DNA from: an uncultured Candidatus Saccharibacteria bacterium
GTDB taxonomy: Bacteria; Patescibacteriota; Minisyncoccia; Portnoybacterales; UBA2143
Assembly: GCA_964403725.1 (NCBI GenBank)
Contig: CAYOHI010000005.1
Span: 3,368 to 67,367 of the forward strand
DNA length: 64,000 nt
Direction: 5' to 3'
In this document: positions 8,913 to 23,764 of the stretch, in pieces
Numbering within the stretch: the stretch's first letter is position 1
Layout of the letters: every line of letters starts with the position of its first letter
Program-made: the position numbers and the translations under genes
The notes under the pieces: model-generated
Databases searched by the model: none
Seen by the model: the letters and a program-made list of their open reading frames with translations, nothing else
Told to the model about the DNA's origin: nothing

Positions 8913-10007
8913 TTAATTTGTACTACAACACTCAACAACAGCTAATTCCAAAGGAAGTTGCTGGAAATCAGCTGATTTAACCTCATTTTCAGCATTAACA
9001 AACAAATGAATAATTTCAATCAATTCCTTTGAATCTAACTTTTCTCCCATCTCCCTTATACCCTCCACTTGTTCTTTTGTCAACTCAGCTGTTACTAATT
9101 TAGATAAAGATGAATCAACTTTTAAAATCATCATTTTTCTAAAGTAGCTTATTAATGATTTGGTAAATTGAACCAAATCATATCCCTGATTGGCAACTTG
9201 ATTGATATGCGAGATGGCTTTGCCTGATTCTTTGTTAATTAAAAAATTAACTAGATCAGAAACTGCTTTAATGTCTGTTACTCCTAAAATAGTCTGGACT
9301 TCTTCTAGAGTAATATTCTTATCCTCCATAGACATAATCTGGCCCAAGAGGCTTTCTCCGTCTCTAACTGAACCATCGGCATTGACAGCAATCAATTCTA
9401 AGGCAGATTTTTCAATCTTTACCTTTTCTTTTCCTGTTATCCAGTCAAGTCTTTCTACGATCTTATCCAAAGTCAATTTATGGAAATCAAATTTCTGGCA
9501 TCTAGATATTATGGTCTGAGGAACTTTATGAATTTCAGTAGTAGCTAAGATGAAAATTGCATGAGCTGGAGGCTCTTCCAGGGTCTTTAAAAGCGCATTA
9601 AAAGCTTCTCTAGTCAGCATGTGAATTTCATCGATTATAAAGACCTTGTATTTTAAAGAATTAGGACTGAATTTAATACCATCTCTTAATTCCCTAATTT
9701 CATCGATACCTCTGTTTGAAGCAGCGTCAATTTCAACTAAATCCAAAGATTTGTTTTCATTGATCTCATTACAGGCATTACACTTATTACAAGGCTCCGA
9801 TTCTTTCCTATTAGTACAGTTAACAGCCTTAGCTAATAGTCTGGCTATGGTTGTCTTACCAGTTCCTCTGACACCGGTAAAAAGATAGGCGTGAGCCACC
9901 TTATCTAATTTCAAAGCATTAATCAAGGTTTTTTTAATATGATCTTGATTAGCCACTTCACCAAATGTCTTTGGCCTATATTTCCTATACAAAACTAGAT
10001 TTGCCAT
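8913..10007 (-). CDS. dnaX: DNA polymerase III subunit gamma/tau (short form, 364 aa)
   Basis: MANLVLYRKYRPKTFGEVANQDHI...AYLFTGVRGTGKTTIARLLAKAVNC (Walker A plus Zn module CNKCNAC), DEIHML, SRCQ. Confidence 0.9.
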   Translation of the reverse strand: MANLVLYRKYRPKTFGEVANQDHIKKTLINALKLDKVAHAYLFTGVRGTGKTTIARLLAKAVNCTNRKESEPCNKCNACNEINENKSLDLVEIDAASNRGIDEIRELRDGIKFSPNSLKYKVFIIDEIHMLTREAFNALLKTLEEPPAHAIFILATTEIHKVPQTIISRCQKFDFHKLTLDKIVERLDWITGKEKVKIEKSALELIAVNADGSVRDGESLLGQIMSMEDKNITLEEVQTILGVTDIKAVSDLVNFLINKESGKAISHINQVANQGYDLVQFTKSLISYFRKMMILKVDSSLSKLVTAELTKEQVEGIREMGEKLDSKELIEIIHLFVNAENEVKSADFQQLPLELAVVECCSTN

Positions 10008-10052
10008 ACATTTTTAGTATATCACAAAGAATTAAAAATTAAAGCGTTTAAC

Positions 10053-10081
10053 TTGACGACATCCAATTAATATTCTATAAA
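10053..10081 (+). promoter_or_regulatory. sigma70-like promoter for zinc-ribbon gene B
   Basis: TTGACG - 17 nt - TATAAA, followed by RBS aaaggggaggag before the ATG at 10122. Confidence 0.4.
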
Positions 10082-10121
10082 GAGGGTAACAATAACACGG
10101 TTAAAGGGGAGGAGAAAAGTT

Positions 10122-10514
10122 ATGGAATGCTCATTACAAACCTGCGATGGCAAAATCAACCTTAGAAAAAAGGTCGAAACTAGAGTAAACGGAAGAGAAA
10201 TTGAAGGGTTTGCTTGTAAGGACTGTGGCTGTATTCACAGAACCGTCCCTGTAAAGGATACAAACGATGGAATCGCTTTCCTCGATAACGGAGGAGTTGT
10301 TTTCAAATCACAGTGCCCCGCCTACGGATGCCCTGGAGTGATCAGCACCAGAAAAGTGGTAACTGTTCCGCTCGAGAGCGGTGAACAAAAAGGTAGTCCG
10401 TGTAGTGTCTGTCGGATAATTTGGCGAGGTAGCGAGCCTATTCATGATGACAAATATCAAACTGCTATACTCGGCGAACATGAACAAATTGATTTCCGAG
10501 CTCCCATTCGATAG
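10122..10514 (+). CDS. small Cys-rich zinc-ribbon-like protein (family member B)
   Basis: MECSLQTCDGK ... FACKDCGCIHRTVPVKD ... CPAYGCPG ... CSVC; strong RBS; GC-richer than neighbours; promoter and terminator both present. Confidence 0.55.
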   Translation: MECSLQTCDGKINLRKKVETRVNGREIEGFACKDCGCIHRTVPVKDTNDGIAFLDNGGVVFKSQCPAYGCPGVISTRKVVTVPLESGEQKGSPCSVCRIIWRGSEPIHDDKYQTAILGEHEQIDFRAPIR

Positions 10515-10544
10515 TCTATCTCCTCTCTTGACCTGTGAATTTAA

Positions 10545-10578
10545 AAGGCCACCAATTGAAAAAATTGGCGGCCTTTTA
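10545..10578. terminator. bidirectional intrinsic terminator between convergent genes
   Basis: aaggccaccaatt-gaaaa-aattggcggcctt hairpin flanked by an A-run and a T-run. Confidence 0.7.
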
Positions 10579-10594
10579 CGTTATCTGAATTTCC

Positions 10595-11209
10595 CTACTT
10601 TTTAAACACAAACATCTTGTATCCGATAAAATTCCAACCCATGGCTACCATCGATGCTACTATGGCCCCGATGTTACCCCATTGTCCAGCATTCAATCCA
10701 AATTGCGGTCCTACTAAATTAACAATACCTGAAGCCACTATATTGTTAACTATAAGCCCAACAACACTAACCAAGAAAAAAGTTAAAAATTGCTTGCCTG
10801 TATCTTTCTCCTTGCTGCTAAAAGCCCAATTCTTGTTGAATAAGTAACTGTTAATATTAGCAACCAAAAAGGAAATTCCTTTAAAAACTGAATACCAATA
10901 CCCTACTGCTATTCCTGAGAAAAATATTAATAAATTCAAAATTCCAATATCAACCAAGAAATTAAAACCACCTACCAGGACGAATTTACCAAATTGAAAA
11001 AGGGATTCTTTTTTCTGACTAATAAGGGAGATTAATTTAATCCAAATTAGGCAAAAAATGGGAAAGAATATTGGCAGAATCCAATACAGATGGCCTTGCT
11101 TAATAAATTCAACATTCAATTCCAAATTATTAACCATTAGAATTAGCAACCAAGCTGATATCTCGCCTATAAAAAACGTTATTAACCAATCTTTTTTAGT
11201 TAATTGCAT
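10595..11209 (-). CDS. GtrA-family membrane protein (polysaccharide synthesis/flippase-associated)
   Basis: FGKFVLVGGFNFLVDIGILNLL is the GtrA signature; 4-5 TM helices; start is 2 nt after the upstream stop. Confidence 0.7.
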   Translation of the reverse strand: MQLTKKDWLITFFIGEISAWLLILMVNNLELNVEFIKQGHLYWILPIFFPIFCLIWIKLISLISQKKESLFQFGKFVLVGGFNFLVDIGILNLLIFFSGIAVGYWYSVFKGISFLVANINSYLFNKNWAFSSKEKDTGKQFLTFFLVSVVGLIVNNIVASGIVNLVGPQFGLNAGQWGNIGAIVASMVAMGWNFIGYKMFVFKK

Positions 11210-11211
11210 AT

Positions 11212-13737
11212 TTAAAACTCTGGAGCTTTTTCAATTTCAAGCCCAAGTCCTTTCTTAAGTATTAATGTATCTCTTCTTTTTAATTTGTTTTCTAATAATA
11301 AAGTAGCTGCCTGGTTTTCAACAATATCCTGAATTACTCTTTTTAAAGGCCTAGCTCCATACAAGGGATCGTATCCCTTTTGAGCCAATTCCTCAACAGC
11401 ATCTTCTTCTGATTTAAAGAAAATTCCCTTTTCCTCCAATTTCTTTTTAAAACCATTTAAAAATAGTTTAGTAATTTTGTTCATATTATCCATACTCAAA
11501 GCCTTAAACAAAACAATTTTATCAAATCTGTTTAAAAATTCAGGCTTAAAGTATTCCAACAGGACAGTTTGCTTTAACTCCTTGTCGATTTCCTCATAAG
11601 TCGATCCACCACTAATTTTCTTCTGGACGAAATGAGTGCCGGCATTGGAGGTGGCGATAATGATGGTATTGGTAAAATTAATAGTTTCTCCTGAAATATC
11701 AGTCAATCTTCCGTCATCCATAACTTGTAAGAATAGGTTTAGAATATCCGGATGGGCTTTTTCAATTTCATCTAAAAGAATCATGGAATATGGCTGTCTT
11801 TTAACAGCCTCTGTTAAATACCCCTTATTAGTATCACTCTCAGTCCTCGAACCAATTAATCTTCTCAATCCTCTTTTTTCTTGGTATTCAGACATGTCTA
11901 AGCGAATCATTCTTTTTTCATTGCCGAAATACACTCTGGCTAATGATTTAGCTGTCTCAGTTTTACCCACGCCAGTTGGCCCCACAAAAAGAAAATTAGC
12001 AATTGGTTTTTTCCTGCCTTGTAATTCCAATCTTGAGCGCCTCATGGCATCAGCAATGCCTTTAACTGCTTCTTCTTGGTTAATTACCCTTTTATGGATT
12101 AAATTTTCTAAATTAAGTAATTTTTCTTTTTCTGTTTCTTCAATTTCCCCCAAAGGAACTTTTGTTTTTTCTGTAACCAATTCAATAATATCGCTGTCTT
12201 TGATATAGGCTCCGGCCCCCATCTGTCCTCTAACCTTGTGACCTGCTTCAGTTAACAAATCCATGGCCTTAGCTGGCAAAGCTTTGCCATAGACATATCG
12301 GTCAGCCAAATTAATAGCTTGTTCTAAAGCATCAGCTGAAAAGAAAATATTTAATTCTTTTTCAATAACATATATTTTAGTAATCAAGATTTGCCATAGA
12401 ATATTCTCTGGTGGCAAAGGCACATTAACCCGACTAAGAGATCTGCCTAAAATTTTACCTTCAATTTTAGAAGCATAATTATCAGCTGTAGTTGTGCCGA
12501 TGAAATAGAAGGCACGTTTATCTAAAGCTGATGATAAGATTTCTGACATATCAATACCTCCAGCTTGGGTTTTGAGACCTGATAGACTATCAATATTTTC
12601 AACTACTAAAACAATATTACCCGCTCTATTAACTTCAAAAACAATCTGTTTTAAATATTCTTCACCTTTTTCTCTAGCGCCGTCTAAACTGACAAGACTT
12701 CCTAAATCAAGCTCAACTAATCTTTTATCCTTTAAAAACTTAGGCACATTCTCCGTAACCATCATCTGAGCTAACTTTTTCAAAATTGCTTTTTTGCCAA
12801 TAGCACTTTCACCAACCAGAACTACGCCAATTTTGCCAGCACTAAAGAAATTAAAGGTGTCGCTAATTTCTTTTTGTCTGCCCATAACAATCTCAAATTG
12901 ACCTTGTCTCGCCAAATATGTCAAATCCCGACTAACCTTATCAAGTGTTGGCGTTAAAACAGCCGTCATAGTTCTATTCAATTTTCCTTTAGGTTTGAAA
13001 AATCTTCGCCAAGAAAAAGACTTTTCGTTCTTTTTAATTTCTCTTTCTAATTGAGACCATATAACGACTTTTTCAATTTCCTCGGGTCTAATTCCAAATT
13101 CATCAAAAATCATGCCAACCAAATTTCTTTGTTGACTAATAGCCCAAAGCAAATCCAAAGCCCCAATTTGACTCTCTTGTTTTTCTAAACAAAATCTATA
13201 CGCATCAACAAATATTTCTTTGAAATCTGAGGCCATTTTAGGACCTAGAAAAGCCACTCCTTTGTCATCCACAAAAAATGAAGAATTCTCTAAAATGCTT
13301 TTAGTTTTTTGATTAACAAGATTAGGATCACAATCTAATCTCTTAAGAATTTTTTTAAAATTCTTTTGTTTTAAAAATGAATTAAAAAGATGGATTGGCC
13401 TTAGTGAGCGATATCCTTTACGATAAGCAAAAAGCCAAGCTCTTTCTAAAGATTTCTGAGCTGAGTTATTCAAAAACAAAGAAACATCAGTTTCTTCCTT
13501 AAACACTTTAATCCTATCAATCCTCTCTTTCTTCCTTTCTAGAATATAGATAAGAAACATGTCAGTTAAAAGAGAAAGATAAAAAACAGCATCATAGCCA
13601 ATTAATAAGGCCCATAAACCATAAATTCCAAAGATTATTAAAAAGAAAAAAAGAACCCAACTTAAAACTCTTCTCAATTTCCTTTGAGTTATTCTCAATA
13701 AATTCAAATGAGGGTTGAAATATAAGTTTGGTTCCAT
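11212..13737 (-). CDS. membrane-anchored Clp/Hsp100-family AAA+ unfoldase (ClpC/ClpA-like; D1 degenerate, D2 canonical)
   Basis: N-terminal two TM helices (VLSWVLFFFLIIFGIYGLWALLIGY...), Clp_N-like LERAWLFAYRKGYRSLRPIHLFNSF, D1 Walker A GESAIGKK and Walker B VVENID (non-canonical), D2 FLFVGPTGVGKTETAKSLA, ILLDEIEKAHPD, IIATSNAG, PEFLNRFD; start taken at the ATG at 13735-13737, which is 2 nt after the upstream stop (the ORF track extends to 13818 with an overlap). Confidence 0.8.
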   Translation of the reverse strand: MEPNLYFNPHLNLLRITQRKLRRVLSWVLFFFLIIFGIYGLWALLIGYDAVFYLSLLTDMFLIYILERKKERIDRIKVFKEETDVSLFLNNSAQKSLERAWLFAYRKGYRSLRPIHLFNSFLKQKNFKKILKRLDCDPNLVNQKTKSILENSSFFVDDKGVAFLGPKMASDFKEIFVDAYRFCLEKQESQIGALDLLWAISQQRNLVGMIFDEFGIRPEEIEKVVIWSQLEREIKKNEKSFSWRRFFKPKGKLNRTMTAVLTPTLDKVSRDLTYLARQGQFEIVMGRQKEISDTFNFFSAGKIGVVLVGESAIGKKAILKKLAQMMVTENVPKFLKDKRLVELDLGSLVSLDGAREKGEEYLKQIVFEVNRAGNIVLVVENIDSLSGLKTQAGGIDMSEILSSALDKRAFYFIGTTTADNYASKIEGKILGRSLSRVNVPLPPENILWQILITKIYVIEKELNIFFSADALEQAINLADRYVYGKALPAKAMDLLTEAGHKVRGQMGAGAYIKDSDIIELVTEKTKVPLGEIEETEKEKLLNLENLIHKRVINQEEAVKGIADAMRRSRLELQGRKKPIANFLFVGPTGVGKTETAKSLARVYFGNEKRMIRLDMSEYQEKRGLRRLIGSRTESDTNKGYLTEAVKRQPYSMILLDEIEKAHPDILNLFLQVMDDGRLTDISGETINFTNTIIIATSNAGTHFVQKKISGGSTYEEIDKELKQTVLLEYFKPEFLNRFDKIVLFKALSMDNMNKITKLFLNGFKKKLEEKGIFFKSEEDAVEELAQKGYDPLYGARPLKRVIQDIVENQAATLLLENKLKRRDTLILKKGLGLEIEKAPEF

Positions 13738-13739
13738 GA

Positions 13740-14090
13740 TTAAAATAGTAATTTCCAAATAGTGAATATTGGTAAAGTAACCCAGGCAAACAGAATAAAA
13801 ACCCAAAGCAAAGCCCAAAGAAACATTAAAAACAAACGAAAAACAAGATGAATAAAATGACTGGCCAAACTTAAGACATATGCATCCCAGCCCTTTTGGC
13901 CATACATAGGTTTAAAGAAATTTTTAATAAAGATTACTAGAGCCAAATTCTGCCAACCATCTTTAATCCTTAAAAAACAAAAAAGAGCCGCTTTTTTTAA
14001 ACCACGACTATACCACCAAACTGGAAAATACAAAACTTCAACAACTGTGTCTAAGAATAAATCTTTTAAAATTATCTTGTAACTTCCCAT
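13740..14090 (-). CDS. small polytopic membrane protein, hypothetical
   Basis: 116 aa; stop TAG of the upstream gene is immediately followed by its ATG (TAGATG); 3 predicted TM segments. Confidence 0.5.
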   Translation of the reverse strand: MGSYKIILKDLFLDTVVEVLYFPVWWYSRGLKKAALFCFLRIKDGWQNLALVIFIKNFFKPMYGQKGWDAYVLSLASHFIHLVFRLFLMFLWALLWVFILFAWVTLPIFTIWKLLF

Positions 14091-16574
14091 CTATTTCACC
14101 TCCATATTTGGGTTAGCTGACTGAATTGGAGCAGCTGTTTTGTACCTAGTAGCAATTTCTTGTTCAACTACTGCCTTATCCCGACCGTACTTTAACCGAG
14201 CCAATTCTTTAATAGCTTGGGCTACTTCCGGAAAACCTTTTTCAGGCGGATAGGTCGCAATATTGAATGGCGTAGAAGTCTGATTATTAATTATTAATTT
14301 AACATGAGCATTAAAATTATCAACATTAATTAAGTCATTAGCACCAAAAACAGGTTCGAATTGCTTAATCAAAAATTCAGCATCTTCAGCCCCCACTCTA
14401 AAAGCAACTTGAGAACCTACATTGCCAAACACAGCTTCTTTAATATTATCTGACAATTGACCAATGAACTGATGAGCAGCAATTAAGCTTAACCTATATT
14501 TCCTAGCCTCAGAGAGAATAGTCGAAATACTATCCGTTGAAAAGTTCTGGAATTCATCCATGTATAGATAGAAATCTTGACGCTGCTCTTCAGGCATATC
14601 TACTCTTGAAAAAGCAGCCATTAAAAGCTTGCCTGTAACAATCATGCCTAAAAGACTACTATTAATATCCCCTAACCTTCCTTTGCTTAGATTAACTAAC
14701 AAAATCTTACGCTCGTCCATGATTTTCCTAAAATCAAGAGAGCTTTTAGCCTGACTAACAATCGGCCTCATATAGTCATTGGAAATGAAAATACTGAATT
14801 TAGAAGTAATGTATGGCACCATATTCTGTAAAGAAGCATCGCCTCCTGCTTTAGCAGCTTCTTTTTCCCAGAAATTCTTAACTACCATACTTTGGCATTT
14901 AGCTAACAACTTAGCCCGATATTCTTTATCAGCTAGAACCTTAGGAACTTCCAATAAGGTAACATCTTCACTAGGATCATCCATTAAAAGCAATAAAGCA
15001 TTGCGAGTATATTGTTCGAACATTGGTCCGCCAGTATTCTTTAAATCATACAATCTATCAAAGATGCTCATCAATTCGTTAACGGCAAAAGTTTTTTGCT
15101 CTGGATATTTAGTGTCATATTCCAGCATATTTAAAGCCAGAGGTCTTTCTAAATCAGAGGGATCAACTAGAACGACATCTTCAACTCTTTCTCTTGGAAT
15201 TAATTCCATAATTTTATCTATCTCACCATGTGGATCCAAAACGCCAATACCTTTACCTGCCCTAATATCTTGAACAATGAGATTGCGCAAGAAAGCTGAT
15301 TTACCAGTTCCCGTTTGTCCAACAATGTATAGATGGCGACGGCGATCATTATCTGTCATTCGAACAACTGATTCGACTCCTCGGTAAACATTTTTGCCTA
15401 GAATAATGCCTTCTTGAGGCATGTTAGCCGGCAAATCAGCTGACTGAGATTTCATGAATTTAACTTTAGGCGTATTAACAGTAATGCTTGGAAAATGGAA
15501 AAGACTGGTTAATTCTTCAGTATTTAAGATGGTTGATTGTTTTCTATTGAATAATCTGAAAGAAAAGTCATAAATTAATTTCTTTAAATTAGATCCTTTG
15601 AGACGAATTGATTTTATTTGATTCAAACTAGGTGCATTAAACTGAACAAAGGCACTTTCCAAATGTCCAAGTATTTGATCGGCTTTTTCTTGGTCTTCCG
15701 AAGAAACTAATAATCTAATATTAACTTCAAACCCAGGTTTACTAGCCTTATTTTCAAGTGATTTTATAATTTCTTCCTGTAAAGGAGTCAAAGAAATATT
15801 ATTTAATTTTTCTTTGTCTTTGTCTTTTTGGGAAGTTCCTTTAACTGCAAGCTCAACATTTTTTCTGACTATTCCCTTGCTAGCTTCTGAATTAGCTGCT
15901 CCAAAATCTTTACCACCTTGCATTTCTTTAGCGATTCTCAAACCCTGTTTAGCCCAGTTTTTAGACTGAGTGGGTTTAATAACGATCTGAATTGAAGCAC
16001 CTTCGCCTTCTTGCTGTAATTTAGACAAAGTATTAGTAATTTCATTCAATGGATCCATTTCCAGACTCTGATATGTTTTAAAAGGCAAAGAATAGGTTTT
16101 GGCTAGTCTTAAATATGAGCCAGCCACTACCCCTTTAGGATTAAAAATATTGTAATCATTTACTTTTTCAACTGAAGCTTCAGAATAGAAACCATGGACT
16201 TGTTTTTCAACAACTGTCTCATATTTGCGAGGTATGGACATATAGAAAGATATTTCTTCTCCTATTTGTGGTGTAGCAATTTCAAAAACAATATGCGGCT
16301 GGCCGTAAAAAAAGGTATCTTTAGTTTCCTTAATATTACTGAGACTACTATAGAATTGTTCCATAACTGAAATGATTTCTTTTTCGCTTTTGGCAGTCTC
16401 ACCTTCTTCTTTTTTATTTTTCTTAGGCAAAGTAATTAAAAACAAACTCATATTCAAAGAGCGGGTTACCTGGCCTCTTTTTTTACGAGCCATAACAAAC
16501 ATCAAAGCGCCTACTCCAATAATTCCAAGAGCAAGTAAAACAACGATACCTATTAGTATTTGATTTAAGTCCAT
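14091..16574 (-). CDS. HerA/FtsK-superfamily ATPase, VirD4/TraD/TraG-like coupling-protein homolog (DUF87-like) with N-terminal TM anchor
   Basis: N-terminal TM; Walker A RRHLYIVGQTGTGKSAFLRNL, Walker B FYLYMDEFQNF, C-terminal ARKYRLSLIAAHQFIGQL resembling the TraD/TraG C-terminal motif. Confidence 0.6.
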   Translation of the reverse strand: MDLNQILIGIVVLLALGIIGVGALMFVMARKKRGQVTRSLNMSLFLITLPKKNKKEEGETAKSEKEIISVMEQFYSSLSNIKETKDTFFYGQPHIVFEIATPQIGEEISFYMSIPRKYETVVEKQVHGFYSEASVEKVNDYNIFNPKGVVAGSYLRLAKTYSLPFKTYQSLEMDPLNEITNTLSKLQQEGEGASIQIVIKPTQSKNWAKQGLRIAKEMQGGKDFGAANSEASKGIVRKNVELAVKGTSQKDKDKEKLNNISLTPLQEEIIKSLENKASKPGFEVNIRLLVSSEDQEKADQILGHLESAFVQFNAPSLNQIKSIRLKGSNLKKLIYDFSFRLFNRKQSTILNTEELTSLFHFPSITVNTPKVKFMKSQSADLPANMPQEGIILGKNVYRGVESVVRMTDNDRRRHLYIVGQTGTGKSAFLRNLIVQDIRAGKGIGVLDPHGEIDKIMELIPRERVEDVVLVDPSDLERPLALNMLEYDTKYPEQKTFAVNELMSIFDRLYDLKNTGGPMFEQYTRNALLLLMDDPSEDVTLLEVPKVLADKEYRAKLLAKCQSMVVKNFWEKEAAKAGGDASLQNMVPYITSKFSIFISNDYMRPIVSQAKSSLDFRKIMDERKILLVNLSKGRLGDINSSLLGMIVTGKLLMAAFSRVDMPEEQRQDFYLYMDEFQNFSTDSISTILSEARKYRLSLIAAHQFIGQLSDNIKEAVFGNVGSQVAFRVGAEDAEFLIKQFEPVFGANDLINVDNFNAHVKLIINNQTSTPFNIATYPPEKGFPEVAQAIKELARLKYGRDKAVVEQEIATRYKTAAPIQSANPNMEVK

Positions 16575-16584
16575 ATGTTACCCC

Positions 16585-17019
16585 CTATTTTTGTTCCAGT
16601 TTCTTTGCTTCAACTAATTTTTCGTAAAGATCATTAGTCAAGGCATCATGAAATTCATCCAAGATATATGGATTATTAGCTTTCTTAGCTTCCTCAATCG
16701 CTTCAGTTAGGCCTTTGTCAAAGGCTATTTGAGTTAACTGCTCAACCCGCTTTTTATCAGCTGGTTCCTCAGCTGGCTGAGTAGGCTTAGCTGGAGTAGC
16801 TGGGCTTGAATCAGCTACTGGCGCTGAAGCTGTTGGAGTAATTTCTTTAGCTGACTGAAGAACTTCTGGTTTAGACACTTCCTCAACCTTTTTTTCAGGC
16901 TGAATTGGAGCTTCTTTTTTTATTGGTGGAGCCTCTTGAGGTTGGCTTGGTTGTTCAGCTGCCGCAGCTGGCCCAACACCTTCCTCAATTGGTTCATGAT
17001 ATTTATCTCGTTCTGTCAT
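16585..17019 (-). CDS. Pro/Ala/Glu-rich low-complexity protein, hypothetical
   Basis: 144 aa ORF; first gene after terminator 17078-17100; 10 nt upstream of the ATPase gene. Confidence 0.45.
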   Translation of the reverse strand: MTERDKYHEPIEEGVGPAAAAEQPSQPQEAPPIKKEAPIQPEKKVEEVSKPEVLQSAKEITPTASAPVADSSPATPAKPTQPAEEPADKKRVEQLTQIAFDKGLTEAIEEAKKANNPYILDEFHDALTNDLYEKLVEAKKLEQK

Positions 17020-17077
17020 ATTATATATATTTTACCACAAAAATATGTTCTTAACCAAAAACTTATCCCCAAACAAA

Positions 17078-17100
17078 AAACCGTTACAAAACGGTTTTTC
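17078..17100. terminator. intrinsic terminator
   Basis: aaaccgtt-acaa-aacggttt hairpin with flanking A/T runs. Confidence 0.6.
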
Positions 17101-17125
17101 TTGGAAATATGAAATTCTCTGAATT

Positions 17126-19600
17126 TTATTTAAAATCTCTCATTTGAACAATCATTTTCATAACAAATTTCTTAGCAGGTTCTACTCTATTTACGTCCGT
17201 TATGTCGTAAAGCTCATTAACTCTCTTAATTAATTCTAGTTTCTTTTTAATAATCCATTGACTTTCAGGAACTCTATTAGAATAGTATTCTACAAAATCA
17301 CTTGGTTTGATTTGACGATTAATTAGAAGATCCATTACTTTTTTAGGACTTTCATTGAATGTTTTCTCTATTATCCCTTGGACAGGATCAATACTTTCAT
17401 TTTGAACCTCTGGAGATTCTGGGAGTATAGTATCTTTCCAAAATGCATCTCTTTCATCCCACCATTCATCTGGGATTGGCTGAACCCTTGTTTTTGAAAC
17501 CTCTTCTGGAACGTCAAATTTTTCACTTATTTCTATATCATCATACCCAGCAACACTTTCTTCTAACCCTTTGGCATGGACAACTTTTTCCCAAGTTTCC
17601 AGCTTAATATTATTAACATACCTCAAGGCGCCTTTTTTCAGAGCCCCTTCATCCCAAAGCTCATCAGCATGACTATCTAATGTTTTTAAAACTTCATTAA
17701 ATTTAACATGGTCTTTAATTTCTAAAGTATTCTTTTTAGGATTCCAATTCACAGCCTCTGAAAGTTCACTGGCTTTAATTCCAATTGTATCCTTGCCTGA
17801 TAATATTCTAATTAAATTCTGTGAAATATTCAGGCTTTTAGCAGCATGTTTTTCAGTAAAATTACCAGCAGCATCTACAGGATTTTCCATGTTATTTATG
17901 GCAATCATTTGGAGAGTTCTTTCTAAATATTTAGGAGCTCCTTGTTTTCCTAATTCTAATGTAAAGTTTTCTTTAAGGCCTCTTTTACTTGATACTTCCT
18001 CTATATGCTCTCTTATTCTAGGTAATGATTCTTTTAGGCGGCTGATCATACGTTCTTTCATATTTCTAAGATTTTCTAAATGTTCTGAATCTATAGGCTT
18101 CCCTTCTGATCTCATCTTTAATAAACTGTTTATTTCCGAATCCACACGATTGTATTCTCTTTCAAGGTTTGCTAATCCAGATCCAAGATCGTTTCTCATT
18201 TCTCCTAAAGGAACTTCTCTAAGTAAAGCAAAGGCATTTCTAATTGTTTCTCTTTGTTCTGATGATTTTACTTCCCATTGCTCTTCATTTATCCTTAATC
18301 TTTCTCCTGCTTCCTTCATACCCTGCAAAAGTTCTTTAGTTCTATTAGATCCTTCATGTACAGGAGAAGTAATATCTTTTGAAGTAAAATACTGATCAGT
18401 AAATTCTCTTATGGCATAACCTGCTGTGGCAAAGCCAGCAGATATGAGGGCGCCTTTTACTGTTTCGCTAAGTAAATACTTCCCTTGTGATTTTTCTTTT
18501 TCTTTCTCTTTTTCTTCGGCAATTGATTTGAGTCTTCTCTCCTCGAATGGAATGATAATATCATCTTCATTTATTCTGACAAATCCTTTACTAAGAGTTT
18601 GCATTAAATCGTACTGTCTAGATATTCTCTCTTCGCTTTCGCCAAAATCAATTAGACCTCTTTCTAATTTATCCGTAAGCCAATCTGTACTCATTCGGAG
18701 TGATTTTTTATAGGCGAATAATTGTCCCGGAGTGAATTCTTTGCCCTGTTTTGTCTTGCCTTCTTCTAATTTTTGGATTGTTTTCTTGATCTTATTACTT
18801 ACCTTTTCAGCTTCTGAATATTTGCTAATTACTCCTTCTCTAATTGCTGATGCCTGCTCTTTTTCTAGGTCTTTTATTTTCTTCTTCTTTTCATTTATTT
18901 TAGATTTATCTAACCCTCCCTTCTCTATTTCAGCATTCAAGACTTTTATTCTATGGTTCCTTTTCCAGTATTCATCAACTTCATCCATTTTATCTCCTTT
19001 GCGAGACATTTTTTCTTTTTCTACGAGTGATTCTTTAGCTCTTTTCCTGGAAATGAAACCACCTAGACCTGCTGCTGCTAAAGGTAAACCAGCAAAACCA
19101 ATCATACTCATTGTCAAAGACCTGGCTGCAAAACCAGCTGCCATATACATTCCTCTTTCTGTAGCTATGTCTTTCATGGCATGAAGCCAGGCTTTTTTGT
19201 TTTCAGCATTAATTAATTGTTTTTCAACTTCAGGGTGAGTGTTTAAAAATTGATTTAAAGTAATCTTGTTTTCAATCTCACTTAAATCAAGCATTGCTTC
19301 TTTTCTGCCCAGCTCTGCTTCTTTGAGGTTTAATAGGTCTTTTTTGGTATTTTCAAATTTTTCCTTTGCTTTCTCATATTTCTTTCTCTCTTTGCTAGTG
19401 GCTGTAGAATATGACCATTCTTTAGGTATTCGGCTGAATTCAGTAGCAATCCTATTAAATGATTCGACTGTTTCTTTTTGTTCTGGATTTCCAGCAGTAG
19501 CATACTGTATTTCTAGCTTGCCATCTATGACTTCTACTTCTGGGCCAAATTCACTCATTCCTTTAGTTAATTGTTTTAAAATATCTCCATGTACTTCCAT
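17126..19600 (-). CDS. large (824 aa) Lys/Glu-rich coiled-coil protein with two hydrophobic segments, hypothetical
   Basis: Long ORF; hydrophobic MYMAAGFAARSLTMSMIGFAGLPLAAAGLGGFI and ALISAGFATAGYAI segments; no recognisable enzymatic motif. Confidence 0.55.
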   Translation of the reverse strand: MEVHGDILKQLTKGMSEFGPEVEVIDGKLEIQYATAGNPEQKETVESFNRIATEFSRIPKEWSYSTATSKERKKYEKAKEKFENTKKDLLNLKEAELGRKEAMLDLSEIENKITLNQFLNTHPEVEKQLINAENKKAWLHAMKDIATERGMYMAAGFAARSLTMSMIGFAGLPLAAAGLGGFISRKRAKESLVEKEKMSRKGDKMDEVDEYWKRNHRIKVLNAEIEKGGLDKSKINEKKKKIKDLEKEQASAIREGVISKYSEAEKVSNKIKKTIQKLEEGKTKQGKEFTPGQLFAYKKSLRMSTDWLTDKLERGLIDFGESEERISRQYDLMQTLSKGFVRINEDDIIIPFEERRLKSIAEEKEKEKEKSQGKYLLSETVKGALISAGFATAGYAIREFTDQYFTSKDITSPVHEGSNRTKELLQGMKEAGERLRINEEQWEVKSSEQRETIRNAFALLREVPLGEMRNDLGSGLANLEREYNRVDSEINSLLKMRSEGKPIDSEHLENLRNMKERMISRLKESLPRIREHIEEVSSKRGLKENFTLELGKQGAPKYLERTLQMIAINNMENPVDAAGNFTEKHAAKSLNISQNLIRILSGKDTIGIKASELSEAVNWNPKKNTLEIKDHVKFNEVLKTLDSHADELWDEGALKKGALRYVNNIKLETWEKVVHAKGLEESVAGYDDIEISEKFDVPEEVSKTRVQPIPDEWWDERDAFWKDTILPESPEVQNESIDPVQGIIEKTFNESPKKVMDLLINRQIKPSDFVEYYSNRVPESQWIIKKKLELIKRVNELYDITDVNRVEPAKKFVMKMIVQMRDFK

Positions 19601-19661
19601 TCCTCCTTCTTTAATTTCATTAGCTGTTTTCTTTTCTAATTTGACAATTTGATATTTTTTG

Positions 19662-21407
19662 CTAATACTGCGCCAAAATCTGCCTAGTAATTTTTGGTTT
19701 TTGGTTTTTGAGGTCTTCTTTATATTCCTTAACTGATTCTTCTTGGATTCTGCCTAAGATTAATTGTTTTAAGTTTTCTAAGACAAGTGATTTTTGACCT
19801 TCTGATAGATTATTGAAACCTTCAATATTTTCTAAATCGTTTTCGGAAATCCCAAACTCAGAAAAATCACCAGGTTTTTCTTTTGCAGATTTAGATGACT
19901 GTGGTTCTGATTCTGGCCCAGATTTAGACTCCGTAGGATTTTCTTCATTCTCTTCTTCCTGTTTTGGTTCACCTCTTCTTTCAGCTTCAGCTTCCTCTTC
20001 CTCGAATATATCGTTATATGCCCTTAATACTTCTTTTGGAAATTTGCTACGTAATCCTCTATTTATTTCCATTAACTTTCTTGCTTTTTCTTTTTCATCC
20101 ATCTCTCGATCATTAAGTATCTCATCTCGCTCCTTAAGCAATCTTTCTAATTCTTCTTTTTCCTCTTCGCTTAAATTTATTTCTGGCTCTGGTTCTTTTT
20201 CTGTTTTAGATTCTGCAGATTCTTCTTGCTGCTCTGGTTCATCTTGTCTTCCTATAAAGGATTCCATTTGACCACCTACTCTTTCATCCCTTTCTTGTTG
20301 AGTTGCATATTTCTTTAATTCTTCGCCCAGTTCTTCGGATTTATCCCTTGGCGGGGTCTCTCTTTCTATGAAAGATTCCATGAGCTTTCCTTTTTTAGTT
20401 TCTGGATTTACATATTCTGGTTCTTTGTATTCCTCTTTTCCTTGTTGAGTTTCGTTTCCTTCTGATGTTTTACTTAGTTGCCTCGCCTCCCACTCTTTTT
20501 TAGCTTTTTTATAGAAAAATTCTTCATTTCTATACTGATCAGTATTCTCTAATCCTCTTTCTTCCATTCGCTTCATAGCAGCTTTATGATTGATCATATT
20601 TTCTAAATCTTTGTTTCCGAATACCTCTTCAGATGTTAATCCTTCTTCCTGCATTGCTTTGTAGATGTATTTTGCACGACCTTCTTTTTTTGGCTCGGGT
20701 TCTTTGGGTTCAGGTTCAGGGGTTGGTTTCTCTTCAGGATTATCTGATGCAGATTCCAAAAGATCATCTACTTCTTTTTGCGAGGTTAAATCTTCTTCAG
20801 GAGTTGGTTTTAGAGATTCCGGTTCCTCTTTTGGCTGTTCTGTTGCTTTGCCTTCTATTCTATTAAAAACTTGGTCTACATTATCTCTCGCTTGCTCTAT
20901 TTTTTCTTCTTTGCCTGGTTCGACGATATCATCGTCAGTTAATTCGATAATATCATTATCTTGCTCTATTGATTCTACTCCTCTTTCTTGTTCTGTTTTT
21001 TCCTTATTTTCTGGATTAACAACATCAGTTAATTCAATTATATCATCGTCGTCTGCTTGTTCCTGTTTTACTTTCATTCTTTCCTTGGCTTCTTTGGCAT
21101 GAGCTATTCTTTCTTTCTTTTCTTTTTCTGTTGCTTTTTGTTTTTGTATTTCTCTCCTTCTTTCTTTTACTTTTCTCATGACGTTTTCATCAGCTTCTTT
21201 AGCTGATTTTACTATCTTTGGTCCTTTTTCAGTATCAGGATCATCTACAACATCAGTTAATTCAATTATTTCCTCTTGTTCTGCTGGTTTAGCAGCTTCT
21301 TGTTTTCCTTGATCGCTAAAAATACTAGCCATTGATTCACTGGCTCCTTCTAAAAGCTCTTCTTCAGTGATCGTTTCTGGTTTGTTTGTATTGGGTTTCT
21401 CTATCAT
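19662..21407 (-). CDS. highly acidic repeat protein (three IIELTDVV/IIELTDDD repeats), hypothetical
   Basis: 581 aa ORF; repeat units EEIIELTDVVDDPDTEKG / DDIIELTDVVNPENKEK / DNDIIELTDDDIVEPGKEEK; C-terminal PKxEP repeats. Confidence 0.55.
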   Translation of the reverse strand: MIEKPNTNKPETITEEELLEGASESMASIFSDQGKQEAAKPAEQEEIIELTDVVDDPDTEKGPKIVKSAKEADENVMRKVKERRREIQKQKATEKEKKERIAHAKEAKERMKVKQEQADDDDIIELTDVVNPENKEKTEQERGVESIEQDNDIIELTDDDIVEPGKEEKIEQARDNVDQVFNRIEGKATEQPKEEPESLKPTPEEDLTSQKEVDDLLESASDNPEEKPTPEPEPKEPEPKKEGRAKYIYKAMQEEGLTSEEVFGNKDLENMINHKAAMKRMEERGLENTDQYRNEEFFYKKAKKEWEARQLSKTSEGNETQQGKEEYKEPEYVNPETKKGKLMESFIERETPPRDKSEELGEELKKYATQQERDERVGGQMESFIGRQDEPEQQEESAESKTEKEPEPEINLSEEEKEELERLLKERDEILNDREMDEKEKARKLMEINRGLRSKFPKEVLRAYNDIFEEEEAEAERRGEPKQEEENEENPTESKSGPESEPQSSKSAKEKPGDFSEFGISENDLENIEGFNNLSEGQKSLVLENLKQLILGRIQEESVKEYKEDLKNQKPKITRQILAQY

Positions 21408-21420
21408 TGTGTGATTGGGA

Positions 21421-22230
21421 TTAGATATTTTTCTTTAATTCACTTTCAAATATATTTTTAGCAATAATCTGTATTGAATAGTCATCAAGACCTTGATATC
21501 TATCAACCTTTTTAGTCTTGGAAAGTATTCCTTCATACGCTTCTATTAATCTTGGTCTTAATCTTTTGTCTACAGAAGGATATTTCTCCAGCACATCATC
21601 GACACATTCCTCTGTTGATGATTCTATTTCTTCTTCTTTTGATCTTAGATTATCAACCAATAGCCCAGCAAGAGTCACGCCTCGTTCTTCTATTCGATAT
21701 ACCCTTAAAAGTTTGATTGCTTCTGCTAATTCATCTCCACTCATCCTGTCTTTGTTTTCGATATAGTGATTCATGATATCTTTGATTACCTCTCCAAGCT
21801 TTCCATCTTGATTCTCTATATATCTTAAATTCTCTAAAAGACCTAAATAGTCTACCTGGCCTTCTGGTTTACTTAACTCTCGTCTTGCTAAATCAACAGC
21901 CTTATCAGAATTTGTTTTGTCAAAATTATACATCTTATTGATAACTTTAACAAAATCACCTGCTTCCTCGTATATGGCAGCAGCTTTTTTTATTAACTCA
22001 TTTTTCTTTTCTTTATCCTCAGGTTCAGGAAAAAATCCATACTTATCCCTTGCTTCACTTAAAATATTTTTAGCTTCTTCTTTTAATTCTTCTTTTTTTT
22101 CTTCTGTTAACTTAGTCTCCTGATTTTCTGGAGTACTGCCTAATCGATCGCCAATACGCACTTGTCCTACCCTAGGTTCTTTACTAGGTCTATTTTCCAC
22201 TTCATCTTGTTTTTCTAATTTTTCAGCCAT
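21421..22230 (-). CDS. hypothetical protein
   Basis: 269 aa ORF, 13 nt upstream of the next gene. Confidence 0.45.
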   Translation of the reverse strand: MAEKLEKQDEVENRPSKEPRVGQVRIGDRLGSTPENQETKLTEEKKEELKEEAKNILSEARDKYGFFPEPEDKEKKNELIKKAAAIYEEAGDFVKVINKMYNFDKTNSDKAVDLARRELSKPEGQVDYLGLLENLRYIENQDGKLGEVIKDIMNHYIENKDRMSGDELAEAIKLLRVYRIEERGVTLAGLLVDNLRSKEEEIESSTEECVDDVLEKYPSVDKRLRPRLIEAYEGILSKTKKVDRYQGLDDYSIQIIAKNIFESELKKNI

Positions 22231-22272
22231 ACTAATATTTTAACATTTATTCAACAAAAAGTCATCCCCAGA

Positions 22273-23724
22273 TTAATCATATGTATACTCATCAACCTTT
22301 AATCCATTTTGATCATAGAGAATGACGGTATCAGAGACATTAGAAAAGGCATCTCTTGATGTCCTTCCCAAGAAAGCCCTCCATTCATCTTCATAGAAAT
22401 CAGGATCAAGGCTGTAGTCTGAGTAGCAACTGTCATAATTAAAATTCTGATTAAGAAAAGATGTACATTGACTGTCTCCACTAATATCTAAATTACCTGC
22501 ATAGTCTGGCAATTCACACCTATCCAAGTCATCAATAAATTCCTTACAATGATCTTTAAAATCACTATATTCAGAAGAATCAATCACTGGACAGTTATTA
22601 TCCAAAGATGGAACAAAATCACCTTGATCTAAATAGCCGGTACACTTGTTAGTTAAAAGGTTAACCCCTACTGGACTTAGACCAGCTGTAATTATTAACT
22701 CATCATCAGGCGCCAGTTCAATGACAACGCTATACGTACTATTAAAAGGAGCTTCTAGTTTCTTGACGGCTTGAGGGATATCTAATTCGCCCAATTTGGT
22801 CTGGATTGTCCAGCCGGCCAAATTAATATTCTGATCACTCTCATTTTCTAGGATAATATGGTCATCCTTAAAATTAAATTGCTCATATTCAATATCCTTA
22901 ATTTCAACTTTTTGGTAATATGGCGAAACGCCAATCTGAAAATTGCGACTGGCTGGGGTTGAATCATAGTATCCTTCTTTGTTTTTGGCTCTGACAAAGA
23001 ATGTATAGCTATTACCAACTTCATCTGACAAGTCATATGATTCAGTATAGCTTGAGCCTTGATTTTTCCACCCGTTATCAATCCCTTTTAAATATGTCTC
23101 GAAAGTTAAGTCAGTTACCAGGCCTATTGGATTTGTACCTGAATATCTGAATTCAATATCACCTGTATCCAAGACTTCTCCTTCACTAGGGCCATCAGTG
23201 ATGAATGTATCAGGGTATCGATTCGGCTCGTTTGAAGTTAGGTTTTCACCTGTTGAAAAACTTTTCAAATCGTTATCACTGACATTTAAGACGTATTTCC
23301 AGCCAAAATCATTATTAAAAAACACTTCTAAGCTCGGAATCCAGCGCTTCTTGCCTAGTTCTATTAAATATACTTCTGGACCTGTTCCTTTCATCAAGGT
23401 TCCGTCTGGATAATCACCCCAACTGCTCCAGTCACTGTCTTGTGGATGATTCTGGATAATCAAATCAGAATACGTCTTGATATTCTCCCACTTGAAATTG
23501 AATTTGTTAAAAATTTCGATACTAGGAATCCAATGCCTTGTTCCTGTTTCCAAGACATATACTTCCGGCCCGCTTCCTTTAACCAAATCTAGCCTTGGCA
23601 GGTATGATTCAGAAGCTTTTGTTTCAACCAAAAAGAAGCCAGTCTGAGAAACCAGCCCCAATACAATCAAGATTACTATGAAAGAAAATATTTTCCACAT
23701 GTCCTTAATGGTAGTATACCCCAT
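22273..23724 (-). CDS. secreted/anchored protein with internal ~60-aa duplicated domain and Cys-rich C-terminus, hypothetical
   Basis: N-terminal signal/TM MWKIFSFIVILIVLGLV; duplicated KGSGPEVYVLETGTRHWIPSIEIF / KGTGPEVYLIELGKKRWIPSLEVF blocks. Confidence 0.5.
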   Translation of the reverse strand: MGYTTIKDMWKIFSFIVILIVLGLVSQTGFFLVETKASESYLPRLDLVKGSGPEVYVLETGTRHWIPSIEIFNKFNFKWENIKTYSDLIIQNHPQDSDWSSWGDYPDGTLMKGTGPEVYLIELGKKRWIPSLEVFFNNDFGWKYVLNVSDNDLKSFSTGENLTSNEPNRYPDTFITDGPSEGEVLDTGDIEFRYSGTNPIGLVTDLTFETYLKGIDNGWKNQGSSYTESYDLSDEVGNSYTFFVRAKNKEGYYDSTPASRNFQIGVSPYYQKVEIKDIEYEQFNFKDDHIILENESDQNINLAGWTIQTKLGELDIPQAVKKLEAPFNSTYSVVIELAPDDELIITAGLSPVGVNLLTNKCTGYLDQGDFVPSLDNNCPVIDSSEYSDFKDHCKEFIDDLDRCELPDYAGNLDISGDSQCTSFLNQNFNYDSCYSDYSLDPDFYEDEWRAFLGRTSRDAFSNVSDTVILYDQNGLKVDEYTYD

Positions 23725-23764
23725 TTTATGGTAGAATTGAAGTGGATAAATTAAAAATTAAAAT

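Follow-up and report, generated by a model that had tools for sequence, protein, structure and literature searches.

To our knowledge, the Hsp100/Clp proteins described so far are soluble, tyrosine-lined threading motors. The M-domain couples ClpB to DnaK, and ClpV recognises VipB through its N-domain. Elsewhere among the AAA+ proteins, FtsH and Msp1/ATAD1 are single-ring machines with aromatic pore loops, FtsH having a protease domain as well. The aromatic pore loops of Clp/Hsp100 proteins are needed for processive unfolding, and it is their loss that sets Torsins apart; Torsins are membrane-associated AAA+ proteins that have Clp/Hsp100 as their closest relatives, and they depend on transmembrane cofactors (PMC5425593). 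Binding of ClpP requires an IGL/F tripeptide (PMC5540906). Our subject is a Clp gene in a 64,000-nucleotide stretch of DNA from an uncultured bacterium deposited as Candidatus Saccharibacteria (contig CAYOHI010000005.1, positions 3,368 to 67,367), which we refer to as the window. The product of this gene, which we call TM-Clp, is by sequence clearly a Clp/Hsp100 homologue, and just as clearly one that lacks the functional features by which ClpA, ClpB, ClpC and ClpV are defined. It is predicted to be anchored in the membrane, to have one dead ring and one competent ring, and to work with a small membrane protein encoded immediately upstream. In a full-text literature search, no Patescibacterial Clp/Hsp100 with a membrane anchor turned out to have been described. 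What we say about the function of the two proteins is drawn from sequence, predicted structure and gene context.

The anchor and the two rings of TM-Clp

The overall assignment is secure. Pfam finds AAA_2 (residues 577-741, 1.6e-53), ClpB_D2-small and AAA_lid_9 in TM-Clp, which has the tandem arrangement of class I Clp/Hsp100 proteins, with D1 made up of AAA and AAA_lid_9 and D2 of AAA_2 and ClpB_D2-small. Its closest solved relative is Staphylococcus aureus ClpC (PDB 6em8, 1e-125). An AlphaFold2 (AF2) model built from 85 sequences has a predicted local distance difference test score (pLDDT) of 87.3 and a predicted template-modelling score of 0.79. The model runs from a hairpin through an eight-helix domain (85-213) and a long helix (218-246) to D1 and D2, and Foldseek ranks ClpC and ClpB at the top of its matches, with a template-modelling score of about 0.8 over 580 residues. 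All motif calls that follow rest on aligning TM-Clp, residue by residue, with Patescibacterial ClpBs and S. aureus ClpC.

The family is a broad one. A protein search returned 368 relatives, all from Patescibacteria; an identical protein and close relatives come from Patescibacteria in metagenomes, Portnoybacteria among them. There are two subgroups, a closer one (55-83% identical, 833-891 residues) and a distant one (37-45% identical, about 855-925 residues). When one genome per species was scanned with an alignment of D1, relatives were confirmed at 270 places. We fetched 80 loci, in which the open reading frames (ORFs) are full-length, and the counts of features given here come from 76 distinct full-length TM-Clps of species-representative genomes. 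Portnoybacteria, Falkowbacteria, Paceibacterota and Parcubacteria are represented among the fetched loci, and Magasanikbacteria also carry the module, by which we mean TM-Clp and its small upstream partner. Many of the metagenome-assembled genome records with a Patescibacteria-type locus are titled 'Saccharibacteria', 'Gammaproteobacteria' or 'Nitrososphaerota archaeon', labels that are probably placeholders or wrong. A canonical ClpB adjoins the module in 33 loci (1180 bits, against a model cutoff of 1232), so TM-Clp is no replacement for ClpB. Nor is it a recent duplicate of that neighbour, an origin we considered and ruled out: TM-Clp scores 373 bits against Patescibacterial ClpBs in phmmer and 424 against S. 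aureus ClpC.

Where the protein begins matters a great deal here. The ATG at 13737 lies 2 nucleotides past the stop (13742..13740) of the upstream 116-residue ORF. In the ORF list the gene runs 11212..13818 from a TTG start, a version that would overlap the upstream ORF. Homologues keep the residues that precede the hydrophobic stretch (NLxFxPxLNLLRIxQRK), and codons 1-70 differ from those of the closest fetched orthologue (L006) at 25 synonymous and 17 non-synonymous positions. Because of this conservation and this synonymous excess, we take the hydrophobic N terminus to be translated. The preliminary description had made two transmembrane (TM) helices part of the protein; the same evidence bears it out and disposes of a start downstream of them.

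Several observations support a membrane location for this N terminus. Kyte-Doolittle hydropathy, averaged over 19 residues, peaks at 2.69 around residues 24-46 and reaches about 1.4 at 49-66, a segment containing two Asp, and AF2 models residues 13-46 and 49-71 as a helical hairpin. The hairpin is kept in all full-length homologues, with a SLLxDMFLFY motif in its second helix (TM2). An N-terminal 19-residue window reaches at least 1.83 in 76 of 76 TM-Clps, against a maximum of 1.79 anywhere in the 33 neighbouring ClpBs, and a second, non-overlapping N-terminal window reaches at least 1.6 in 47 of the 76. The proposal that this Clp protein is tethered to a membrane thus held up across the 76 members.

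Some distant-subgroup TM-Clps (P0071, P0075, P0085, P0089 and the ORF at L086:6367-9141) have a zinc-ribbon-like CxxC...CxxC extension in front of the hairpin; the window protein does not. Such an extension argues for a cytoplasmic N terminus and hence for two membrane spans, in an N-in/C-in hairpin that would hold the N-domain and D1 against the cytoplasmic side of the membrane.

The domain that follows the hairpin is harder to place. That it is a Clp_N-like repeat, as had been claimed, is a view that we keep in part: the ClpA model aligns from residue 91, precomputed matches to PF02861 are present, if weak, and the AF2 fold is helical. Searched by itself, the domain has as its best match the N-domain of ClpV1, at a non-significant E value of 0.51, so 'Clp_N-like, highly divergent' is as far as we would go.

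D1 has lost most of what an ATPase needs. Its Walker A (residues 309-316) reads GESAIGKK, compared with the canonical GEPGVGKT, and its Walker B (378-383) reads VVENID, compared with FIDELH. The tandem Arg fingers are degenerate too, ERRF being replaced by GRSL, and the pore loop is SLDGAREKGEE where ClpC has AGTKYRGEFEE, which turns KYR into GAR. What D1 retains are the P-loop glycines and Lys; the Walker A Thr, the catalytic Glu, most of the Arg fingers and the pore-loop Tyr are lost. Across the 76 TM-Clps the catalytic-Glu position is never E: 66 have N there, 6 have D, 3 have G and 1 has Q. The final Walker A residue is K in 35, S in 15, R in 14, T in 9, G in 2 and N in 1. The large subdomain of D1 has a mean pairwise identity of 0.49, as against 0.62 for D2. 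The codons of D1 tell us that this is not simple erosion: the window and L006 differ at 69 synonymous and 29 non-synonymous positions. Synonymous differences outnumber non-synonymous ones in both D1 and D2 of the closest pairs, as they do in the hairpin when compared with L006. By this measure D1 is under constraint, not decaying.

D2 is a different matter altogether. GPTGVGKT, LLDEIEKAHPD, ATSNAG, NRFD and the sensor-2 GARPLKR are all canonical. Walker A GPTGVGKT and the DE of Walker B are each present in 76 of 76 TM-Clps, and in the 85-sequence alignment the sensor-1 N698, the Arg finger R737 and R796 are invariant. A two-ring Clp would have functional Walker motifs in both rings; TM-Clp departs from this through D1, with D2 intact. 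Also missing is the ClpB M-domain, the long coiled coil in D1-small, which appears as a gap of about 125 residues in alignment to the Patescibacterial ClpBs. The preliminary description had called D1 degenerate and probably inactive, D2 fully canonical and the long M-domain absent, and alignment with ClpC and ClpB sustains it on all three counts; the possibility that the D1 motifs are conventional after all fails.

The pore is where TM-Clp parts company with the threading motors. The D2 pore loop, LIGSRTE--SDTNKGYLTE in TM-Clp and LVGAPPGYVGHDDGGQLTE in ClpC, has lost the Tyr of PPGYVG, the equivalent stretch reading SRTESDTNKG. Among TM-Clps GYVG becomes RTES or DVDG. An aromatic residue occurs in the D1 pore loop of none of the 76 and in the D2 loop of 6, and in only one of those six is it at the canonical position. 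The window protein has neither the KYR of D1 nor the GYVG of D2 that mark an aromatic pore-1 loop. Pore-loop identity across the family is 0.35 in D1 and 0.39 in D2, compared with 0.49 and 0.62 for the domains that carry them.

The ability to dock ClpP seems to have gone as well. Alignment brought to light no IGF or VGF motif in TM-Clp, and an [ILVM]G[FLM] tripeptide in the D2 loop was found in 0 of 76 TM-Clps, against 32 of 32 neighbouring ClpBs. The segment concerned has a fixed length of 45 residues in TM-Clps and is 51-56 residues long in the neighbouring ClpBs, an 11-residue deletion. In public databases TM-Clp goes by the name 'ATP-dependent Clp protease ATP-binding subunit (ClpC)' and its partner is a 'hypothetical protein'. 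Since TM-Clp has no ClpP-docking loop, the first of these names is probably misleading.

How, then, does TM-Clp stand beside its named relatives? ClpC is its best match in both sequence and fold. In both, D1 includes AAA_lid_9 and D2 is made up of AAA_2 and D2-small, preceded by an N-domain that in TM-Clp is at best Clp_N-like, and D2 is about 40% identical over some 580 aligned residues; unlike ClpC, TM-Clp has a TM hairpin, no M-domain, no VGF/IGF loop, a degenerate D1 and no GYVG in D2. ClpA has the same N-D1-D2 plan without an M-domain, and its NCBIfam model (TIGR02639) aligns in one stretch over residues 91-821. TM-Clp differs from it in the membrane anchor, the dead D1, and the missing IGL loop and pore tyrosines, and scores 462 bits where the ClpA cutoff is 993. 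The soluble Patescibacterial ClpB is a paralogue in the same genomes with a homologous two-ring core (373 bits by phmmer), which TM-Clp resembles without its M-domain, its KFRG and GY[IV]G loops, its DE in the D1 Walker B or its SIGF loop; on the ClpB model (TIGR03346) TM-Clp reaches 528 bits against a cutoff of 1232. ClpV fares no better, with 400 bits on TIGR03345 against a cutoff of 885, and no genes for a type VI secretion system, the context of ClpV, were found among the window ORFs scanned or the recurrent neighbour families.

The small upstream partner

The second protein of the module, which the preliminary description does not mention, accompanies the first nearly everywhere. In 77 of 82 loci its gene is immediately upstream of TM-Clp and co-directional with it, the gap having a median of 3 nucleotides (interquartile range -4 to 9). 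The other five loci comprise three in which the Clp gene sits at a contig end, one with two inserted genes and one whose Clp gene is split. The partner cluster (114-127 residues) was defined from ORF calls in the fetched loci by BLASTP clustering. It has no relative in Pfam, NCBIfam or the PDB, and a profile search of 1.84 billion representatives recovered 565 at E<=0.001. These 565, which are representatives at 50% identity, are nearly all stand-alone proteins of 105-160 residues. Remote partners at 31-34% identity, including one from Magasanikbacteria, also precede a TM-Clp, of 924 or 856 residues, and the adjacency holds across subgroups that are 37-45% identical.

Invariant or near-invariant in the partner are YFPxWWYSRG, KNxFxPMYGQ, S74, R85, W103 and P107. 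AF2 models it (pLDDT 81.5) as helices at residues 3-29, 31-48, 51-56 and 68-115. Because residues 70-116 alone are strongly hydrophobic and the loops that precede them are positively charged, we infer a protein with a cytoplasmic N-terminal part and a C-terminal membrane anchor; it looks, in other words, like a tail-anchored protein. An intramembrane pair between Asp58 of TM-Clp and Arg85 of the partner was considered and ruled out, as ABY1-type members have no such Asp.

One protein, P0284 (414 residues), joins partner-like and TM-Clp hairpin-like segments in a single chain. Its first 150 residues resemble an out-of-frame translation, and we have set it aside as probably a miscalled ORF. Were it a true fusion, it would be direct evidence that the partner and TM-Clp interact.

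Neighbouring genes and the resident ClpB

The features of the locus are collected in Table 1. The genes around TM-Clp are those of a chromosomal core: dnaX, tRNA-Gln, seryl- and lysyl/aspartyl-type tRNA synthetases, a penicillin-binding protein, an FtsQ-like gene, ftsK and rpoB/rpoC, in a region with a G+C content of about 30-44%. A promoter and terminator scan of 10000..23900 gave counts equal to the shuffle expectation. Between the GtrA gene and dnaX is an ORF for a 130-residue cysteine-rich protein (10122..10514, plus strand), with several CxxC-like pairs and no Pfam match.

Table 1. The TM-Clp locus: positions in the window, strand and supporting evidence
Feature	Position	Strand	Evidence or remark
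TM-Clp, two-ring membrane-anchored Clp/Hsp100 paralogue, 841 residues	11212..13737	minus	Pfam, ClpC match, AF2, Foldseek
Predicted transmembrane helical hairpin, residues ~24-46 and ~49-66, loop GYD, flanks RKLRR and ERKKERIDRIK	13537..13668	minus	hydropathy, AF2, conservation
Clp_N-like helical domain, highly divergent, residues ~85-215	13093..13485	minus	ClpA model, weak PF02861, eight helices in AF2
D1 AAA+ module, residues ~263-510, catalytically degenerate, without M-domain insertion	12208..12949	minus	ClpC/ClpB alignments
D2 AAA+ module, residues ~511-830, full catalytic set	11248..12207	minus	Pfam, ClpC/ClpB alignments
Partner membrane protein, 116 residues, hydrophobic C-terminal part ~70-116	13740..14090	minus	synteny, AF2
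GtrA-family membrane protein	10595..11209	minus	Pfam GtrA_DPMS_TM 1.4e-20; starts 2 nucleotides past the TM-Clp stop
VirD4/TraD-like coupling ATPase, 827 residues	14091..16574	minus	abuts the partner gene with no gap

Downstream of TM-Clp the company is consistent. Among the first one or two co-directional genes there is a GtrA gene in 29 of 82 loci and a WecA/TagO-like Glycos_transf_4 gene in 39 others, so that one or the other lies within two genes of TM-Clp in 68 loci. This context hints at a role in the cell envelope, and we regard it as suggestive. The WecA/TagO-like protein is sometimes fused to QueH, the epoxyqueuosine reductase, in a chain of about 520 residues (L034:9797-11368, plus strand, is an example), which oddly joins an envelope enzyme to one that modifies tRNA.

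Upstream the picture is more variable. In the window a four-gene block (14091..21407, minus strand) separates an LTD-domain gene from the partner gene; it consists of the VirD4/TraD-like ATPase and proteins of 144, 824 and 581 residues, and these last three have no Pfam match. L002 lacks the block. Members of the VirD4-like family are present in 17 fetched loci, all from the close subgroup, and directly precede the partner in 14 of them. The block may be a variable insertion related to a type IV secretion system (T4SS) or to DNA transfer. We considered a functional link between TM-Clp and the VirD4-like gene and rejected it, given a family confined to 17 fetched loci and missing from L002 and the distant subgroup.

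The ClpB next door merits a closer look. It is 879 residues long and has a complete M-domain; its pore loops are KFRG and GY[IV]G, both of its Walker B motifs contain DE, and it has an SIGF loop. In this ClpB (L034:3934-6573, minus strand, and its counterparts in 32 other loci) a full-length M-domain of the ClpB type occurs together with a ClpC-like YSIGFN tripeptide loop in D2 (32 of 32), which points to a hybrid of ClpB and ClpC, one perhaps able to dock ClpP.

Where clpB and the module are divergently arranged, a near-perfect CIRCE element (TTAGCA[CG]TC-N9-GA[CG]TGCTAA) is present in all 23 of the intergenic regions (109-434 nucleotides). Two of these loci, L079 and L082, first seemed to be without clpB; an uncalled clpB start was found in both. 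The element sits 14-38 nucleotides from the start of clpB, with the single exception of L072 (85 nucleotides), and 63-163 nucleotides from the partner gene, which has a TGTTATAAT box of its own nearer its ATG than CIRCE is. No CIRCE was found in the 64-kb window. The presence of CIRCE implies HrcA control of clpB in these Patescibacteria. We do not take it as evidence that HrcA controls the module: the element is placed for clpB, and the window has none.

How TM-Clp might work, and why it matters

Our preferred reading, in which belief and doubt are about evenly matched, is that TM-Clp is a ClpP-independent, membrane-anchored Hsp100 paralogue that works with the small partner encoded upstream of it. 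A hexameric ring would place 12 TM helices in the membrane, with the helices of the partner in addition. Like NSF-D2 or p97-D1, D1 would be a scaffold ring, unable to hydrolyse ATP and perhaps still able to bind nucleotide. D2 would be the sole motor, and would require assembly of the ring, its Arg finger acting on the neighbouring subunit. Aromatic residues are lacking from the two pore-1 loops, which are polar or acidic and vary a good deal, and ordinary processive threading is therefore probably not used. D2 hydrolysis probably remodels, gates or releases the partner, or a client that the partner presents. The YFPxWWY and FxPMYGQ motifs, in the positively charged and presumably cytoplasmic N-terminal part of the partner, may dock on the divergent N-domain of TM-Clp, which would resemble the recognition of VipB by the N-domain of ClpV. 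The process served is probably one of the cell envelope, the downstream genes being nearly always WecA/TagO-like or GtrA.

The closest working analogy we can offer is Torsin with its cofactors LAP1 and LULL1. There, as here, an AAA+ protein without aromatic pore loops is associated with a membrane and with a membrane partner (co-encoded, in the case of TM-Clp); this is analogy, and does not make TM-Clp a Torsin by homology. The differences are plain enough. Torsin is a single luminal ring that takes its Arg finger from the cofactor, whereas TM-Clp has its own D2 Arg finger in R737 and a dead D1 ring besides, and the partner, unlike LAP1 and LULL1, is a 116-residue helical protein without an AAA-like fold.

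Several points weigh against what we propose. Adjacency could mark a shared pathway instead of a physical partnership. The second helix of the hairpin is hydrophobic to a moderate degree, and the Asp conserved in TM2 is missing from the ABY1-type L086 and L087, so there is no universal intramembrane charge pair. Non-aromatic pore loops are no proof that threading is absent, and in some members the loops are aliphatic (G-L-L-G or G-T-L-G) and might yet hold a substrate. As for the envelope, the link to WecA and GtrA genes may be gene order inherited in small, syntenic genomes.

The best of the competing explanations is that TM-Clp is an extractase or unfoldase that pulls membrane proteins out of the bilayer, through its channel and into the cytosol by D2 alone, much as FtsH and Msp1 extract theirs. 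We hold this to be unlikely, although it has real attractions. An N-terminal anchor, which TM-Clp has in common with FtsH and Msp1/ATAD1, points the entrance of the ring at the bilayer, and in TM-Clp it would put the channel entrance on the N-domain/D1 side against the membrane. D2 is competent, its Arg finger implies a ring, and the tail-anchored look of the partner would suit an adaptor or a substrate. What tells against an extractase is that across the family both rings have lost the pore-1 aromatic, in loops that vary between lineages, and that there is neither a protease domain nor a ClpP loop. TM-Clp also differs from FtsH and Msp1 in having two Clp-type rings, no aromatic pore loops and, by Pfam scan, no peptidase domain. 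The dedicated translocation or extraction role put forward in the preliminary description meets the same fate: the geometry of the protein fits a role at the membrane, and that part we retain, but with the pore aromatics missing from both rings, threading by an unfoldase is unsupported.

A bolder idea dispenses with threading entirely. A TM-Clp hexamer and its partner could together make an ATP-driven membrane machine with at least 12 TM helices over a polar or acidic channel, one that gates, assembles or moves a cargo other than unfolded polypeptide, such as a lipid-linked glycan intermediate or some component of the envelope. We think it decidedly unlikely. If it were true, it would be a use of the Hsp100 scaffold for which we found no description.

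The shared intergenic regions raise a further thought, that TM-Clp is a membrane heat-shock disaggregase for aggregated membrane proteins, under HrcA/CIRCE control with ClpB and assisted by DnaK. The module does lie head-to-head with clpB in 23 loci, with a near-perfect CIRCE between them. That element is nearer to clpB than to the partner gene, however, and it is missing from the window, and TM-Clp has neither the M-domain that couples ClpB to DnaK nor aromatic pore loops. We consider this very unlikely. A shade less likely again is that TM-Clp is an accessory ATPase for a T4SS, conjugation or DNA uptake, serving with the VirD4/TraD-like gene. The abutment of that gene on the partner, repeated in the layout of 14 loci and with the family present in 17, is what speaks for it; yet the gene has the pattern of a variable insertion placed between the module and the LTD gene, and in L002 and the whole distant subgroup the partner/TM-Clp pair persists without it. 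Last, that genome reduction has left TM-Clp as a mere relic of ClpC or ClpB, decaying and without function, is scarcely credible, for all the canonical motifs it has lost and the NCBIfam Clp scores far below cutoff, when relatives occur at 270 places, D2 residues are invariant, synonymous differences are in excess, and both hairpin and partner are conserved.

We return, then, to a membrane-anchored Hsp100 paralogue working with a small partner, and to why it matters. TM-Clp departs from the Hsp100 pattern in three ways, in its membrane anchor, in its dead first ring and in the loss of the gripping residue from both rings, and it does so with a complete D2. Nature has in this way set up a test of how much a Clp ring can do once its pore-loop tyrosines are gone, and a bacterial counterpart to the Torsin question. 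For the Patescibacteria, our reading would give a candidate function to two abundant proteins that until now have been labelled 'ClpC' or 'hypothetical'.

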